Shown here: positions 1-7,129 of the stretch, piece after piece
Position numbering within the stretch: position 1 is the first letter of the stretch
Layout of the letters: each line of letters begins with the position of its first letter
Translations under genes and position numbers: made by a program
Notes under the pieces: model-generated
The model's input: only the letters and a program-made list of their open reading frames with translations
What the model was told of the DNA's origin: nothing
The model's database searches: none
IMG/VR virus record: IMGVR_UViG_2671180543_000002
Length of the DNA stretch: 7,129 nt
Reading direction: 5' to 3' (one strand)
Origin: a virus
Taxonomy: Duplodnaviria > Heunggongvirae > Uroviricota > Caudoviricetes

Positions 1-11
1 CAGATGGCTGC

Positions 12-257
12 TTAAAAAAAGAACAAATGGTAGTGTCCGCTATTGCCAGTACACCTCAATTCTTTGGCATTTTTTACCTCGTTACGCGCGTCTGTGGCTT
101 TGCCAACGGATACTTCCGCGTGCGCACGAGTGAACCAGTGCGTGGCAACGTCTTCCTCCACAACATGACGGCCTTTAACAAACTCGCGCCGAGAACCGTC
201 GGGAAGCGTGAGCACAAACGGGGTATGTACGTGTATTACTGCATCATTTTTTGCCAT
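12..257 (-). CDS. Hypothetical phage head-module protein (81 aa), first gene downstream of the major capsid gene; function unknown
   Basis: ORF from the track. ATG at 255..257 (minus sense) is preceded by AAGGA about 7 nt upstream. It is co-oriented with and 41 nt downstream of the capsid gene. The stop at 12..14 sits directly on an A7 run (14..20) at the window edge, so the true 3' end is uncertain. Confidence 0.5.
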   Translation of the reverse strand: MAKNDAVIHVHTPFVLTLPDGSRREFVKGRHVVEEDVATHWFTRAHAEVSVGKATDARNEVKNAKELRCTGNSGHYHLFFF

Positions 258-272
258 CGGGTCATCCTTAAT

Positions 273-289
273 GGCCCCGCCAGGGGGCC
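273..289 (-). promoter_or_regulatory. GC-rich stem-loop (6-bp stem GGCCCC/GGGGCC, 5-nt loop) in the 41-nt spacer after the major capsid stop
   Basis: Seen directly: 273..278 GGCCCC pairs with 284..289 GGGGCC. No U-run follows on the mRNA strand, so it is not a canonical intrinsic terminator; an mRNA-stabilising or attenuating hairpin is more likely. Confidence 0.35.
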
Positions 290-298
290 ATGTGGCTG

Positions 299-1240
299 TT
301 AAATGCCATCAACGTACGAAATGGTTTCTTTGTACACTGGCTCGACTGCACCCAGCTTGCCGTAGTAAGTGACGATCTGATACAGACCGCGATACTGCAC
401 CGGCACGCTCTGAAGCGGAACCAGCGGGTAGCGGACGTATTTTTTATCGTTGGTGTACGCAACTATGCGATCCTTATTCCCCACACCACGGCCTTTCAGC
501 CATTTAACCGCGCGGATATTCAGCGGAACACCGTTCTGGTGATAGCTGATGGTGTTGGTCTGAAGGTTCGTCAACAGGGACTGGTTACCTGCAGATGAAA
601 CGATGATGCTGGACAACAGAGCAAACTGCTCAGGCGGGATCAGCAAATCACGCGGAACCACAGAGTAACCAGAAGCGGCCCACGCATCAGACAGCACCTG
701 GTTAATGCTTGCGCGGATTTCGTCCGGTGTTGAGGTTGCCCACGTTTTGGCAGCGTTGTTGACAGGCACGCCGTCCAGGGTAACAAGGCCTTTCAGGTTT
801 AATGCGGAATCGCCAACATATACCTGTTCATCGTTATCCATCTGCCATTTCAGTTGCATACCGTCATACTTCTGCGTATCAATCGGGCGGCCGACCTGCT
901 GAGCAGCCTGCAATTCTATGACCGTCCAGCCAAGTTCCATCCCCCACAGGTTCAGCGGGTTACCGGATTTGCCGATATCCACGTTCACGCCAGCAATAGC
1001 GGTTGAGTCTTTGCCTACCCAGTTTTTTCCATTCGGATTTGCGCCAGTACCCGCAGCGGCGAAGCTGGTATTCGTCCAGCTGGAAATGTCATCTGCGATG
1101 GAGGCGTCTTCACGCAGTTGAATATCGCGGCTCCAGGTGTACCCCACCAGTGGCAGGTTCAGCGTCTGGTCGAGTCTCTCCAGCTCCCCGATGAGAAAGG
1201 CACCAGAGCTGTCAACGGTTGCCTGATCAAAAGTAATCAT
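299..1240 (-). CDS. Putative major capsid protein (313 aa)
   Basis: Position immediately after protease/scaffold and decoration-like genes in a terminase-portal-MuF-protease operon; size typical of HK97-fold capsid proteins; strong SD (AAGGA) 9 nt upstream of the ATG at 1238..1240. Family assignment is by context and recollection, not by a search. Confidence 0.7.
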   Translation of the reverse strand: MITFDQATVDSSGAFLIGELERLDQTLNLPLVGYTWSRDIQLREDASIADDISSWTNTSFAAAGTGANPNGKNWVGKDSTAIAGVNVDIGKSGNPLNLWGMELGWTVIELQAAQQVGRPIDTQKYDGMQLKWQMDNDEQVYVGDSALNLKGLVTLDGVPVNNAAKTWATSTPDEIRASINQVLSDAWAASGYSVVPRDLLIPPEQFALLSSIIVSSAGNQSLLTNLQTNTISYHQNGVPLNIRAVKWLKGRGVGNKDRIVAYTNDKKYVRYPLVPLQSVPVQYRGLYQIVTYYGKLGAVEPVYKETISYVDGI

Positions 1241-1384
1241 TCGTCTGTTCCTTAAATCTTCCAGGAAATTTCTGCATTGCCGTCAGCATCACCGGCACCT
1301 GTGAATTCAGCGTTGGTCAGCACCACGTTTTTGCCACTGACTGACGTGGACATGAATCCACCCAGAGGCACTTTGATGGATTCA

Positions 1385-1741
1385 TCAGTGGAGATCGCCT
1401 TTTTTGATAGTGCTGGCATCAAAATCAGAACCGAGATTAACGGTCACGTAGCCACGCTTCATGGCGTCGCCCGGGAAGTTCTTGCCTGTTCCCACCTGGC
1501 GAACCATGTCCGGCTGCGACGTGGTCGGATAAGGGCGCACGTAGATCCCCTTCACCTTGTCTGCGGTATCACCATCTGCCAGCGGCACGAAAAAACCGTC
1601 ATCATCGTATTTACCAGCCAGGCCATAGGCAGCGAAGGCGTTATCGGATTTAAGGACCACCGGTTCGACGGTTAAGTCCTGCGGGCGAGAGACAGCCCCG
1701 GCAATGCCAACAGGCATCCGGTACAGAAATACATTATTCAT
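1385..1741 (-). CDS. Small head protein, decoration-like (118 aa as called); probably frameshifted, with the coding frame continuing to 1252
   Basis: ORF from the track, 3 nt downstream of the protease/scaffold stop. An A6 run (1400..1405) lies just before the called stop. A different frame stays open and protein-like to a TAA at 1252..1254 that overlaps the capsid SD. Confidence 0.55.
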   Translation of the reverse strand: MNNVFLYRMPVGIAGAVSRPQDLTVEPVVLKSDNAFAAYGLAGKYDDDGFFVPLADGDTADKVKGIYVRPYPTTSQPDMVRQVGTGKNFPGDAMKRGYVTVNLGSDFDASTIKKGDLH

Positions 1742-1744
1742 TTT

Positions 1745-2413
1745 TTACCCTTTACGGTTTGCCCAGAATTCAGCGTTTTGTTTGTTCAGGGAAGCGATAC
1801 TGGTCATGCCCATGTTTAGGCGCTGTGCATCGCCGGTGGTGGCGCGGGTGTTTCGCCCTTTGGCAACCTCAGACACGGCATTAAACGCCATGTCGACCGA
1901 TTGTTTCGGTAATTTGCGGATATCCGCATCACCGACTATCTGGCGAACCAGCGTTTTGTCAGCAGAAGCCAGAACCTCGCGTTTGAACGCGGTCGGTTTC
2001 ATCTTACGGCTCAGATCGATACCCGGAACGATAACTTCGGCACGCCAGGCTGAGTCACCAGTAATCGTGGTTTCCTCTTCATCGTCCTCGCCGTCACCGG
2101 TCGGATTATCGTCAGGCTTATTATCGTTATCGCCCGTGGCATTTCTTTCCAGCTTAGCCAGCAGGGCTTTCAGTAATGTTTTGAGGTCATCATCACTGTC
2201 GCCGGTTGGATCTCCGCCCATCTCTGGTGCTTTGTCCGGTAGTGGTTGCTGCGGGGACAGGTTGATGTTGAGATTAACGCCCTGCGGCAAATCCCCCTCA
2301 TCTCCTGTAACCGATGCGGGAGCCGACTCCACCAGTTCGTTCATGGTGTCGGCATCTCCTGTCTTGATGGCCGCACGCATGCGGTTCCACCAGTTTTTCT
2401 TTTGATTTGCCAT
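1745..2413 (-). CDS. Candidate nested in-frame scaffold protein (222 aa) initiated at the internal ATG 2411..2413 (Met185 of the protease ORF)
   Basis: Internal in-frame ATG preceded on the mRNA strand by GGAGACAGAGACACA (GGAG about 11 nt upstream); it falls exactly where the N-terminal domain ends and the acidic region begins. Inference by analogy to Mu I/Z and lambda C/Nu3. Confidence 0.3.
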   Translation of the reverse strand: MANQKKNWWNRMRAAIKTGDADTMNELVESAPASVTGDEGDLPQGVNLNINLSPQQPLPDKAPEMGGDPTGDSDDDLKTLLKALLAKLERNATGDNDNKPDDNPTGDGEDDEEETTITGDSAWRAEVIVPGIDLSRKMKPTAFKREVLASADKTLVRQIVGDADIRKLPKQSVDMAFNAVSEVAKGRNTRATTGDAQRLNMGMTSIASLNKQNAEFWANRKG

Positions 2414-2965
2414 TGTGTCTCTGTCTCCAATTGCACAACGATTTCCGGCTCTGCCTTTAGGGACAAGAGCCACATGGTTTCCGGTAATATCGACCTGCTC
2501 GGCTTTACCTGGCTCGGTCTGCTCGTACTCCGCGTCATAGCCGCACGACACTTCGCGCAGGCCATCTTCGATAAGCTGAATGGCGCTTTCGTCTTTGACG
2601 ATAAGGTCAGCCAGCATCAAATCAGACTGCTCACCCGTCCCGCGCCGGACATTCTGGAGGTGCCCGACAGCAAGCACTTTCCAGTTCTCGGGATTTACCA
2701 GCCGCACATTCCCGTTTTCATCTTCAGGATGCAGGATCGTGATGCTCATCCCTTCGAATGAGGCAAGCGTGGCCGGATGGAATACCTGCTCAGGAGAACG
2801 CGTGACGACTATTTCAACGAACTTATCGGGTTTCAGTTTTGGCAGGTCATCAGCACCATAGAGCTGCTTACCTGTTCGTCCTATCGGCACGTCTTTGCAC
2901 AGCAACGAGCCGTCAGCCAGGCGGTATCGGGTTTCCCCGAGCCTGGTCTCAAAAAAGTATTTCAT
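1745..2965 (-). CDS. Putative prohead protease / scaffolding protein (406 aa): N-terminal globular domain, acidic low-complexity linker, C-terminal scaffold-like region
   Basis: Position between the MuF-like gene and the capsid gene; strongly acidic D/E/G/T-rich stretch (roughly residues 200..300) typical of scaffold proteins; architecture analogous to Mu I/Z or lambda C/Nu3. Confidence 0.65.
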   Translation of the reverse strand: MKYFFETRLGETRYRLADGSLLCKDVPIGRTGKQLYGADDLPKLKPDKFVEIVVTRSPEQVFHPATLASFEGMSITILHPEDENGNVRLVNPENWKVLAVGHLQNVRRGTGEQSDLMLADLIVKDESAIQLIEDGLREVSCGYDAEYEQTEPGKAEQVDITGNHVALVPKGRAGNRCAIGDRDTMANQKKNWWNRMRAAIKTGDADTMNELVESAPASVTGDEGDLPQGVNLNINLSPQQPLPDKAPEMGGDPTGDSDDDLKTLLKALLAKLERNATGDNDNKPDDNPTGDGEDDEEETTITGDSAWRAEVIVPGIDLSRKMKPTAFKREVLASADKTLVRQIVGDADIRKLPKQSVDMAFNAVSEVAKGRNTRATTGDAQRLNMGMTSIASLNKQNAEFWANRKG

Positions 2966-2968
2966 GGG

Positions 2969-3751
2969 TTATGCTGCCCTTTTCATTGCGAATGGAACGC
3001 GAACAAACACGATCTCTTTATAGCAGCGGCAGTTTGGCAGCTCGCCCGCGTGGCCGGTCATGCCGTCCAAAGTTGGAGGTGAATCCCAGCGGACGAATTT
3101 ACCTTTCATGTGATCGTGGGAATCTCGGACATCGCCATCATCGGCTGTACGCCAAATATAACCATCCGAGCCAATAGCTATCGCTCGGGCCATATCCAGC
3201 GCGCCCGTTGCTCTTCCCAGTTCCGTTCGGGCAATCAGATCGGCCCTAGACTTAGCAACATCGCCGGTAGATGCAATCTCTTTAGCAAACTGCTCCGCCC
3301 GACCACCGGTGACAACAGCCTCTATCGCTTTGTTCTGGATGTCGTACACCCTGTCTGCGGCCTCGAGAGGCAGAGATTTGATGTACTTGACCTGTTCGGC
3401 GATGATGGATTGCATCACCTGGCCCACAGGAGCGCTTTCCACAAGATTGCGGAGCTCGCGACTGATGTTCTTGCTGTGTTGCCGCCAAACTTTCTCGTTC
3501 TGCCGGGTTAGGTCCGCAGTAAAGTTTTCCGCGACCTTTGTCGCCCAGGGGGTGATGATTTCACTGTAACGCTCCAGCGCCGCAATAATTTCCGTGATAC
3601 TGTCATTTGAACCATCGTAGCGACCATTTACGATGTCTCCGACCGCCCTCGCTATCCTGCGTAGGCTGGTTCGATACCGGATTTCCGCCTGACGGCTCCT
3701 GCGGTTCGTCATCAGGTTCGCCGATGCCGGGCGGCGCTTCATCTTCGGCAT
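2969..3751 (-). CDS. Phage head morphogenesis protein, Mu F / SPP1 gp7-like (260 aa)
   Basis: C-terminal region contains ...WRTADDGDVRDSHDHMKGKF...GELPNCRCYKE..., matching my recollection of the conserved VR..H and CRC signature of Mu F-like domains; located between portal and protease. GAGGA SD 8 nt upstream of the ATG at 3749..3751. The start overlaps the portal 3' end by 149 nt. Confidence 0.8.
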   Translation of the reverse strand: MPKMKRRPASANLMTNRRSRQAEIRYRTSLRRIARAVGDIVNGRYDGSNDSITEIIAALERYSEIITPWATKVAENFTADLTRQNEKVWRQHSKNISRELRNLVESAPVGQVMQSIIAEQVKYIKSLPLEAADRVYDIQNKAIEAVVTGGRAEQFAKEIASTGDVAKSRADLIARTELGRATGALDMARAIAIGSDGYIWRTADDGDVRDSHDHMKGKFVRWDSPPTLDGMTGHAGELPNCRCYKEIVFVRVPFAMKRAA

Positions 3752-5069
3752 TCTCGATGTCCTCGTTGGTAATGGATGCCCCTATGCCGGTTACGTCAGA
3801 ATTTTCTCGCAAATCAGTCATAGCGGCTTTCAGTGTCATCAGACCATCACCCAGCGCCGTACTGATTGCGTTGGTGGTGTTTAACGCCACCGTTGAGCGA
3901 TCGACATCAGACATTTGCCAGAGCGGGTTAAACTCAAACGTGAAATCGTCCGGCAGCGGCTTGCCAAGTTCCGAACGATGCATGATGTCCAGTATCCGCC
4001 GCACCGGAAGACGTAAACGCCTCTCCTGCAACGAACTGATGCGATCGTAATAGTTGGCAAGGTCTGCATCACCGGTAGAAAATCCTTTCGGGGACTGTCC
4101 GAACAACCGCACCAGTGGGATACCAACAGCGCCACTAATCTGTTCTGCAAACTGCGAAAGGATGTCATCCAGACCACTGAAGCTGTACTGATGGGTTTCA
4201 AACTTATCCCGCGAGTCCATGAGCGTCATGCCTTCATTACTCTGGAACTGTCGAATCAGGTCGATATTCTTCAGCAACGCTTCATACGCAGGACCACCAA
4301 GTGCGATAAGCTCGCGTAGCTTCTCCACGCTGTAGGTACGCAAATGCGCCTTGTAGACCAGCTGCGCCGCGCCGACAGTAGCGCTGTCGAACGCGGTAAG
4401 ACGATCCCAGATACGCTCTACAACCGACATTCCCCATTCGTTCTCGGTCATCTTCTGCTGAAATGGCAACGTGACGCCATCAAAGCGAATCAGGCGACTG
4501 TGATGAATGCGCCAGGCAGGAATTCCCGTTGCTGTGGTCACCACATCGTAAAACTCAGGTTTACCCAGGTCCGGCCCCATATCTTTAATGCGGCGGGTCA
4601 GTGCCGGGTCGACCATCCAGCGGTCGAGCGGGAGAATCCCCTTAAACTTGCCCTTACCGATGGTTTCGGGTCGCAGCGGGGTCATTGGTGCCTGCCCCTC
4701 AATCATGATGAAACCCACCGCGCCGCCGTAGAGGCGCGACCATTTCAGCACGTCATTCAGCGCATCCCAGATTTGCAACTCATCCAGTTGTGATTCGAGA
4801 ATGCCACGATCTTTTGCATCAATTTCCGAAGTGATGCGAATGCCTTTGCGGGTCATATCATCCGGGATAGCATCGACTGCTTCGCCGATGATCCAGGATG
4901 AACGATAGGACCATTCCACCAGCATGCGGTTACGACTGGTGAAATTAGCCCGGTAGGTGGATGCTGAGTGCTGGTTAGGTGTCTGCATCCCTACTCGGGC
5001 AATAAAATTCTCATAACCATCAGCTGTGGCCTGCACAGTTCGCCGCAGGGCTTGTTTGTTTCGTGCCAT
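3603..5069 (-). CDS. Putative phage portal protein (488 aa) with an acidic, proline-rich C-terminal tail
   Basis: Size and position directly downstream of, and translationally coupled to, the terminase large subunit (ATGA overlap at 5067..5071) and upstream of the MuF-like gene. Family inferred from context. Confidence 0.7.
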   Translation of the reverse strand: MARNKQALRRTVQATADGYENFIARVGMQTPNQHSASTYRANFTSRNRMLVEWSYRSSWIIGEAVDAIPDDMTRKGIRITSEIDAKDRGILESQLDELQIWDALNDVLKWSRLYGGAVGFIMIEGQAPMTPLRPETIGKGKFKGILPLDRWMVDPALTRRIKDMGPDLGKPEFYDVVTTATGIPAWRIHHSRLIRFDGVTLPFQQKMTENEWGMSVVERIWDRLTAFDSATVGAAQLVYKAHLRTYSVEKLRELIALGGPAYEALLKNIDLIRQFQSNEGMTLMDSRDKFETHQYSFSGLDDILSQFAEQISGAVGIPLVRLFGQSPKGFSTGDADLANYYDRISSLQERRLRLPVRRILDIMHRSELGKPLPDDFTFEFNPLWQMSDVDRSTVALNTTNAISTALGDGLMTLKAAMTDLRENSDVTGIGASITNEDIENAEDEAPPGIGEPDDEPQEPSGGNPVSNQPTQDSEGGRRHRKWSLRWFK

Positions 5070-5801
5070 CAGGCCTGTCTCCCCAGCTGTTCCCAGATAT
5101 CCAGCGATGTATCGATTGGCGCGAAGGCCATAATGAATGCATCAGCAACGTTTGGTGACGGTATCTCGCGTTTTGCGAGGTCTTTTTTACTTTCGACCAT
5201 CACACGTCCGTTACGGTCGAAATCACGATGAGGTGTTGTCAGTTCCAGTTTCAGCTTTTCAAGCAACGGACAACGAGAATCTATGCTGATCAGCTCATCC
5301 ACAGGATACTGTTCTCCGTTGTTAATGGCGTTAAACGTATTTCTGAAACGGTCAGCCACCATGCCTGAGCCTTAAGATTTGCGAAAAAGTCTTTGTTGGG
5401 GATGCCGTTGTACTCGTCATCTGGCTCATGCACACCAGCACCGGCGTTAAACCTCTGGTAATTCACACGTCGCGCGTATGCGTTCTCGCTCTTCCGGTCA
5501 GCGTTAATTTCAGAGAATTTAGCACCGGCAGACGCACCAACACCGATAGAGTCGTAAACAATATCTGCTTCACGCTCCAGCGCCGCCTGATAAGTACGCT
5601 GGCAGCTCTTCAGTAATTCATCTTCTTTGGCCTTCCATTCGTCGGCCCAGAAAACAACGGATCCGTGACGGTAAACGTTAGCGCACTTATCTGTACCACT
5701 GTCAGCCACGTCAAAGCCAATACGCTTTCTTCCACTGGGTTCGAAATTTAACGTTTTGTGCGCATCCACTGCGGCTTCTATCCAAGACAGTTTGATGATT
5801 G
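5069..5801 (-). pseudogene. Terminase large subunit, 3' half only (nuclease domain), with an internal frameshift near 5350..5362 and 5' truncation at 5802 by an IS2 end
   Basis: ORF 5290..5829 contains ...RIGFDVADSGTDKCANV..., resembling the RNase H-like nuclease motif of terminase large subunits. ORF 5069..5362, in another frame, looks like the terminase C-terminal end (...ESKKDLAKR..SPNVADAFIMAF). The first 9 codons of the 5290..5829 ORF (MSGNIGANP) are read out of the IS2 terminal repeat. The ATPase half is absent. Confidence 0.8.
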
Positions 5802-5860
5802 CTGGATTTGCCCCTATATTTCCAGACATCTGTTATCACTTAACCCATTACAAGCCCGCT
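5802..5860 (+). mobile_element. Terminal 59 bp of an IS2-like (IS3 family) element, outermost end at 5802, running into the N gap
   Basis: TGGATTTGCCCCTATATTTCCAGACATCTGTTATCACTTAACCCATTACAAGCCCGCT is identical to 6942..7000 and matches my memory of the IS2 right terminal inverted repeat. Confidence 0.75.
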
Positions 5861-5870
5861 NNNNNNNNNN
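5861..5870. other. Run of 10 N: assembly/scaffold gap of unknown true length
   Basis: Literal n characters in the sequence. Confidence 0.99.
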
Positions 5871-6941
5871 AACACCAAAGGCGATGCCATGATTGGCGTC
5901 AAGCAGCCTTTACCAAAAGCAGTTTTAAGAACTCAGCATGACAAAAATAAAGAAGCAATAAGTATCCTGGATTTTGGTGTTATTGATGATGGTGTGACAG
6001 ATAATTACCAGGCAATACAAAATGCTATAGATGCCGTTGCTTCACTACCCTCCGGCGGGGAGCTGTTTATCCCTGCGAGCAACCAAGCGGTGGGGTATAT
6101 TGTTGGATCCACTTTGCTTATTCCTGGCGGTGTTAACATCAGAGGAGTTGGTAAGGCATCGCAACTCCGAGCAAAAAGCGGACTTACAGGATCTGTGTTA
6201 AGGCTGTCTTATGATTCAGACACTATCGGCCGTTATCTGAGAAATATACGAGTAACTGGTAATAACACCTGCAATGGTATTGACACAAACATTACAGCAG
6301 AAGACTCTGTCATCAGACAGGTTTATGGCTGGGTATTTGATAATGTAATGGTGAATGAAGTTGAAACCGCATTATTTAATGCAAGGGCTCTGGCACTCAA
6401 AATTTATAGCATGTCAGGCTGGAACCTGTAGAGTCGGTCTTCACTTTTTAGGCCAGTGCGTAAGTGTTAGTGTCAGCTCCTGCCATTTCAGCAGAGGAAA
6501 TTATTCTGCTGATGAAAGCTTTGGCATCAGGATTCAGCCTCAAACGTATGCGTGGTCGTCAGAGGCAGTTAGGTCAGAAGCAATAATTTTAGACAGTGAG
6601 ACCATGTGCATTGGTTTTAAAAATGCCGTCTATGTTCATGATTGCCTTGATTTGCATATGGAACAACTGGATTTAGATTATTGCGGCTCAACAGGCGTGG
6701 TTATAGAGAATGTAAACGGAGGATTTTCTTTCTCAAACTCATGGATAGCAGCAGATGCCGATGGCACTGAACAATTTACGGGGATATATTTTAGAACGCC
6801 GGCCTCAACGCAGTCACATAAAATTGTCAGTGGTGTTCATATCAACACTGCAAACAAAAACACGGCTGCAAACAATCAAAGTATAGCGATAGAACAGTCG
6901 GCGATCTTCGTCTTTGTAAGTGGTTGTACGTTAACTGGTGA
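5871..6941 (+). pseudogene. Right-handed beta-helix, pectate-lyase-like protein (possible glycan depolymerase or tailspike-type enzyme); frameshifted between 6355 and 6431 and 3'-truncated by the IS2 end at 6942; 5' end may lie in the gap
   Basis: N-terminal ...ISILDFGVIDDGVTDNYQAIQNAIDAVASLPSGGELFIPAS... resembles the signature start of pectate-lyase-3-type beta-helix domains. The reading frame is open from 5871 (ATG at 5889). Two overlapping ORFs in different frames (5889..6431 and 6355..). Everything after 6941 in the second ORF is IS2 sequence. Low GC compared with the phage genes. Confidence 0.55.
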
Positions 6942-7129
6942 TGGATTTGCCCCTATATTTCCAGACATCTGTTATCACTTAACCCATTACAAGCCCGCTG
7001 CCGCAGATATTCCCGTGGCGAGCGATAACCCAGCGCACTATGCGGATGCCATTCGTTATAATGCTCGACCGCCTCTGCAAGGTTCTTTGCTGCCGTTAAC
7101 CCGTCTGGTTTGGGCATGATACTGATGTA
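6942..7129 (-). mobile_element. IS2-like element, right end (partial; the element continues past the window end), with its terminal inverted repeat starting at 6942
   Basis: Same terminal sequence as at 5802..5860, here continuing into the transposase coding sequence. Confidence 0.8.
6953..7129 (-). CDS. insD: IS2 / IS3-family transposase OrfB, 3' end only (5' part outside the window)
   Basis: Minus-strand translation ...[54 protein letters not shown], stop at 6953..6955; the HYNE..HSALGY..P motif is typical of IS3-family integrase C-termini. Confidence 0.7.

Follow-up and report, generated by a model that had tools for sequence, protein, structure and literature searches.

We find that the capsid cement (decoration) protein gene that spans positions 1252..1741 of the window (the whole 7,129-nt stretch of viral DNA analyzed here) is very probably an ordinary pseudogene, fixed in the Shigella flexneri lineage and made by a microhomology-associated 17-bp deletion in a decaying prophage remnant. 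The original prediction had placed a frame change at an A6 run in this gene and offered a pseudogene, a 1-nt assembly error and programmed frameshifting as explanations; alignment to intact relatives and the recurrence of the same sequence in other assemblies favor the pseudogene and speak against the other two.

Direct reading of the minus strand reproduces the layout from which that prediction started. The 5′ part of the cement gene is a 118-aa ORF (1385..1741) that ends ...STIKKGDLH with a TGA at 1387..1385, and 144 nt (1241..1384), an unusual gap for such a tightly packed operon, separate it from the gene for the major capsid protein (299..1240, minus strand; 313 aa; DUF2184/PF09950, Pfam 286 bits), which looks intact and is equal in length to the capsid gene of annotated homologues. 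The A6 run, which supplies two Lys codons, lies at 1400..1405 on the same strand. The frame one base further on reads AISTDESIKVPLGGFMSTSVSGKNVVLTNAEFTGAGDADGNAEISWKI*, with its TAA stop at 1254..1252 falling inside TAAGGAACAGACGAATG (1238..1254, minus strand), an ancestral gene junction that comprises the cement stop, the ribosome-binding site and the capsid ATG, and that is identical in all four aligned sequences. The 3′ remainder of the gene (1252..1392, minus strand) thus consists of 46 codons (STDESIK...ISWKI) and the TAA, one base out of frame; its protein sequence is identical to residues 123-168 of the intact 168-aa E. coli protein, and its sole nucleotide difference from the prophage of E. 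coli VL40, at 1366, is synonymous (CCT vs CCG).

Pfam profiles connect the two frames. The 118-aa ORF scores 79.1 bits against PF23982 (XM1_gp53_minor_capsid; profile positions 1-112 of 154) and 47.2 bits against PF22758 (Phage_cement; E217 gp24/Pam3 gp6), above the Pfam gathering cut-off of 27 in both families, and the downstream frame matches both weakly, at positions 118-153 of 154 in PF23982 and 108-144 of 146 in PF22758. Since the downstream frame recovers the missing C-terminal profile positions, we read the two frames as pieces of one domain and the downstream frame as no chance ORF, in agreement with the earlier suggestion that it encodes the rest of the same protein and not a separate 32-aa gene. 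The intact allele gives 105 bits for PF23982 (1-153 of 154) and 76.6 bits for PF22758 in one frame, whereas in the window positions 1-112 and 118-153 fall in different frames and the complete domain is not present in either. The order DUF2213 gene, cement gene, PF09950 capsid gene is found in the window and in annotated homologues alike. With family-level sequence similarity and gene position both in place and a full-length single frame missing, the locus is therefore a predicted pseudogene of a cement family member, not a functional member. When the intact protein is compared to PDB chains by single-sequence phmmer, only one spurious match (E = 0.53) comes back, so the structural family assignment comes from the Pfam profiles alone.

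The characterized proteins of this group, gp24 of Pseudomonas phage E217 and gp6 of cyanophage Pam3, form beta-tulip trimers at the threefold and quasi-threefold axes of the capsid, where an N-terminal arm contacts capsid proteins and the trimers tie capsomers together (PMC10329688, PMC9942802). The ORF studied here resembles them, and Vibrio phage XM1 gp53, in its significant Pfam matches and in being the gene immediately before the major capsid gene of a myovirus head module, but differs in that its domain is divided between two frames and the full-length protein cannot be made. Gene order (portal, Mu-F-like protein, DUF2213, cement, capsid) is likewise shared with the elements that carry intact orthologues, namely E. 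coli prophages (WP_001066732.1), phage vB_EcoM-606R2 and Salmonella phage SEN34 (Brunovirus); compared to these relatives, the element in the window lacks the 17 bp as well as neck, tail and lysis genes, and its terminase gene is broken.

A megablast search with positions 1200..1800 (601 nt) finds the region in 339 complete E. coli genomes, and every full-length E. coli match listed is 618 nt long, as are those of the four closest phage records (vB_EcoM-606R2 and its relatives). Over this query, which includes flanking sequence, identity to the closest E. coli and phage copies is 96.3-96.9%, counting the 17-nt gap, and identity to SEN34 is 79.5%. The homologues examined (E. coli prophages, vB_EcoM-606R2 and SEN34) all consist of one ORF, 165-168 aa long: E. 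coli FDAARGOS_943 and VL40 each carry one 507-nt CDS (168 aa) named 'structural cement protein Gp24', vB_EcoM-606R2 one 507-nt CDS annotated as 'hypothetical protein', and SEN34 one 498-nt CDS annotated as 'virion structural protein', with 11 nt between the end of the cement CDS and the capsid CDS in the annotated homologues. Aligned to these relatives, the two-frame translation is contiguous within one ORF, and none of them ends at ...GDLH with an independent small gene downstream, so that the reading of one gene, broken, stands.

A four-way MAFFT alignment of the window with FDAARGOS_943, vB_EcoM-606R2 and SEN34 opens a single 17-nt gap in the window, immediately after GGCGA: following ...ATCAAAAAAGGCGA, the window lacks TCCGGTATACGTTGTCG on the minus strand (GACGACAACGTATACCG on the plus strand) and resumes at TCTCCACTGATGAA. 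Alignment and blastn place the junction at 1392..1395, where the window reads ATCAAAAAAGGCGATCTCCACTGATGAATCC and the intact gene AAAAAAGGCGAYCCGGTATACGTTGTCGTCTCC; a 2-nt GA/TC microhomology (GA on the plus strand) leaves it placeable anywhere from 1392|1393 to 1394|1395. The deletion lies five bases 3′ of the A6 run in the direction of the gene. All three intact genes, that of SEN34 among them, carry the identical run with their frames unbroken, and the run is therefore not the lesion; the frame change must be moved from the A6 run, where the original prediction had put it, to the 17-bp deletion just downstream, although its claim that the gene is disrupted holds. The intact protein reads ...TIKKGDPVYVVVSTDESIKVPLGGF...ISWKI, and the ancestral sequence at the junction is TIKKGDPVYVVVSTDES, not the predicted junction peptide TIKK/AISTDES. 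The deletion takes out PVYVVV and shifts the last 46 codons by one base, which is why deleting one A seems to restore the frame. Residues 1-116 of the 118-aa ORF (MNN...TIKKGD) are ancestral, and its final LH codons and TGA are out-of-frame read-through past the deletion.

Apart from the deletion, the 504-nt gene segment differs from FDAARGOS_943 at one base only. Across 5.7 kb, blastn aligns the window to the intact VL40 prophage at 99.3% identity; 16 mismatches separate the two, and the sole indels are the 17-bp cement deletion and another of 7 bp in the terminase gene. Of the 339 matching E. coli genomes, 60 were sampled at even spacing, and none of the 59 full-length matches has the length of the query that a copy with the deletion would show; the excess over the query is 17 nt in nearly all of them, or 15 nt for a match of 599 nt, and all copies are annotated as cement protein or hypothetical protein. 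One sampled genome, H92 (NZ_CP191552.1, 2833574..2834192), has a match of 619 nt, 18 nt longer than the query, compared to 618 nt elsewhere, which may represent a 1-nt indel in or beside its cement gene. We regard the opposite polarity, a 17-base insertion in the other lineages, as unlikely: these bases are found in the distant SEN34 too, and the Pfam profile extends across them.

When one genome per species was searched for exact copies of the junction, matches came from S. flexneri SFBU1023 and 'E. coli' ECMA0423. Positions 1..5860 of the window are 100% identical to the SFBU1023 chromosome, and positions 1..5340 are 100% identical to the 4.44-Mb chromosome of ECMA0423, up to the end of that locus. 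The exact 118-aa protein occurs in 3048 indexed blocks of the assembly collection and on at least 1000 contigs, under the name 'putative bacteriophage protein [Shigella flexneri 2a str. 301]'. Each of the ten long contigs with this protein has the junction, among them AE014073, which we take to be the finished chromosome of S. flexneri 2a 2457T; with SFBU1023 and ECMA0423 added, the identical junction is present in 12 further assemblies besides the window. The whole 504-nt segment is identical in nine of the ten long contigs and in 11 of these 12 assemblies. Because the same junction recurs across many assemblies and its product on so many contigs, the deletion is judged to be real, inherited and fixed in the S. 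flexneri lineage, and no assembly error. The sequence has been in public reference genomes for two decades.

The gene sits in what its content identifies as a head-module remnant of about 5.8 kb from a SEN34/vB_EcoM-606R2-like myovirus prophage, both bounded and interrupted by IS elements. The VL40 prophage has an intact 467-aa PBSX-family terminase gene and lysis genes ahead of its head module, and neck and tail genes behind it. In the window, the terminase large-subunit gene is a 3′ fragment (5069..5802, minus strand) with a 7-bp deletion near 5353, the loss of one copy of a tandem CAGCCAC relative to VL40 and FDAARGOS_943, which yields frameshifted ORFs of 179 aa and 77/97 aa and is common to all S. 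flexneri loci that reach the site. The fragment is cut at 5802/5803 by an IS2 end (5803..5860, followed by N at 5861..5870), IS2 being annotated at the homologous sequence, and in the S. flexneri loci too IS genes lie between the two terminase halves. At the other end, homology to the intact prophages begins at position 59; positions 1..58 are the end of an IS3-family element, presumably IS600-like, which truncates an STY1053-like gene and replaces the downstream neck and tail genes. IS ORFs lie directly to the left of the window in loci L005 and L008-L017. No neck or tail genes are found past the capsid module in the window or in the S. flexneri loci, compared to their presence in VL40; beyond the IS3-family element come Mu-like transposase remnants and then the chromosomal genes dcuC, pagP, cspE and crcB. 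The locus thus combines an out-of-frame lesion in the cement gene with independent inactivating lesions and missing essential modules, and the element is predicted to be unable to package DNA or build virions. A search of the literature for a named description of this S. flexneri remnant returned general genome papers only.

Several further features of this neighborhood are recorded here. The STY1053-family gene, 73 aa when intact, has had its 3′ end exchanged for the IS3-family end, giving an 81-aa chimeric ORF (12..257), and the DUF4054 gene that overlaps it, with everything downstream of DUF4054, is absent. The Mu-like genes near dcuC, pagP, cspE and crcB (L005, 1..1460; L008-L017, about 12945..15471) comprise a transposase gene (HTH_Tnp_Mu, DDE_2, Mu-transpos_C) and small Mu-type regulators, and seem to represent another prophage remnant, unrelated to the first. 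The E. coli relative that comes closest, FDAARGOS_943 (L007, 5928..6671 and 8028..10767), is decaying independently: an internal stop interrupts its head-morphogenesis gene, and its terminase gene carries an IS2 at a site that differs from Shigella's. The cement gene of this relative is intact.

Toward the far end of the window, the same IS2 end is present in two copies of like orientation, at 5803..5860 and at 6939..7129; between them stand ten N (5861..5870), then 1068 nt of unrelated sequence. IS2 continues directly past 5860 in the complete SFBU1023 chromosome. Because of this, and of the IS2 end repeated around the N run, the window looks like a scaffold joining contigs that were broken at IS2 copies, and the sequence from 5871 onwards is probably not truly adjacent. 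Positions 5871..6938 come from the interior of a phage tailspike gene whose product has a pectate-lyase-like fold (PF12708). Of 5426 complete E. coli genomes, CFSAN061762 alone has this fragment, at 99.6% identity, on a P22-like prophage beside an acyltransferase gene and near ybhB. In the window, a 1-nt insertion, one A too many at 6371, breaks this copy into two ORFs (5889..6431 and 6355..7119), and the copy is interrupted by IS2 at about 6939; this fragment is, on its sequence, a second putative phage pseudogene in the window.

Other explanations for the split cement gene were weighed against these data. That the A6 should be an A5, and the gene truly intact, is a reading to which we give essentially no credence. 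It draws on the long ORF that formally results from dropping one A, and on the nature of the window as a draft sequence containing a run of N, but A6 is the length of the run in every aligned intact homologue, with no difference in run length to account for, and the actual difference is 17 bp, which no homopolymer error yields. Recurrence of the junction in independent assemblies, one of them a finished chromosome, refutes the proposed 1-nt error further, and the A5 'repair' would give a protein without GDPVYVVV, unlike any homologue. Programmed +1 (or -2) frameshifting, or transcriptional slippage, at AAA AAA G to produce short and long isoforms is also highly improbable. tRNA-Lys on AAA AAG could in principle re-pair one base forward, and the downstream frame is indeed open as far as the ancestral stop; however, an A6 run is short for appreciable transcriptional slippage, the frame change maps to the deletion and not to the slippery site, and inspection around AAA AAA GGC reveals no Shine-Dalgarno-like stimulator and no slow, stop or hungry codon. 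The two-frame layout is not conserved, all homologues examined being single ORFs with the same A6; a recoded product would have the eight ancestral residues GDPVYVVV replaced by AI; and an isoform of a virion protein would be without a role in an element that has no working terminase and no tail genes and makes no virions. The likeness to programmed frameshift genes (prfB, +1; dnaX, -1; the phage tail chaperone G/GT) is superficial only: what they share is one protein encoded jointly by two overlapping frames close to an A-rich run, whereas here the split is not conserved, the frame changes at a deletion and stimulatory elements are not seen. The +1/-2 isoforms of the original prediction are rejected on these grounds.

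Two genuine genes, a 118-aa decoration protein and a small gene of 32 aa from the ATG at 1353 or 56 aa from the TTG at 1422, are a vanishingly improbable arrangement. An ATG-initiated ORF does start at 1351..1353, and small ORFs are annotated at this site (33 aa in L017, 55 aa in L012), yet the small ORF encodes the C-terminal end of that Pfam domain and of that conserved protein, identical to residues of a contiguous 168-aa protein in hundreds of genomes, and the split layout is found in no homologue examined; an independent small gene is rejected accordingly. Retention of the truncated 118-aa protein, which keeps the N-terminal arm and most of the beta-tulip-type domain, for a new role beneficial to the host is very unlikely too: the truncated allele is identical across many S. 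flexneri genomes, but S. flexneri genomes share a very recent ancestor and the remnant as a whole has diverged little, which explains that identity, and the neighboring genes decay likewise. There is a very slim chance that low-level +1 tRNA-Lys slippage on AAA-AAG, or RNA polymerase slippage on A6, yields a little near-full-length TIKK-AISTDES... product, or that the host has co-opted the 118-aa fragment, in which case the broken cement gene would not be entirely dead; trace spontaneous +1 slippage on AAA-AAG would have no biological setting in this remnant.

The favored explanation remains a deletion that fixed by descent. The ancestor carried a single 168-codon ORF with its TAA abutting the capsid ribosome-binding site. 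A 17-bp deletion between two short TC microhomologies (GA on the plus strand) then took out the PVYVVV codons and put the final 46 codons out of frame by one base, so that translation now stops after ...KKGD-LH at 1385, and this allele became fixed in the S. flexneri lineage. The sequences show the deletion itself, where it lies, its recurrence across independent assemblies, the intact homologues and the other lesions; that it arose by microhomology-mediated deletion or by replication slippage is our inference, and the truncated 118-aa product probably represents a loss of function. Since the remnant can apparently make no particles, nothing would be selecting for the gene. The gene carries no further damage beyond the deletion, with its one synonymous difference from VL40, so that sequence decay alone is no proof of lost constraint; this low damage is itself uninformative, because overall divergence (16 mismatches in 5.7 kb) is too low.

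The correct annotation is thus one frameshifted capsid cement pseudogene, rather than a short 'bacteriophage protein' followed by a gap or a small ORF, and the split gene is not to be 'repaired' by trimming the A-run. The general lesson is that a nearby homopolymer can be a tempting yet wrong culprit where intact orthologues are available for comparison. With its small out-of-frame deletions, IS2 and IS3-family insertions and truncations, all fixed across assemblies, the element is a typical example of the IS-riddled defective prophages of Shigella, with no unusual feature relative to them; otherwise it is one more case of the well-known decay of Shigella prophages by IS insertion and small deletions.
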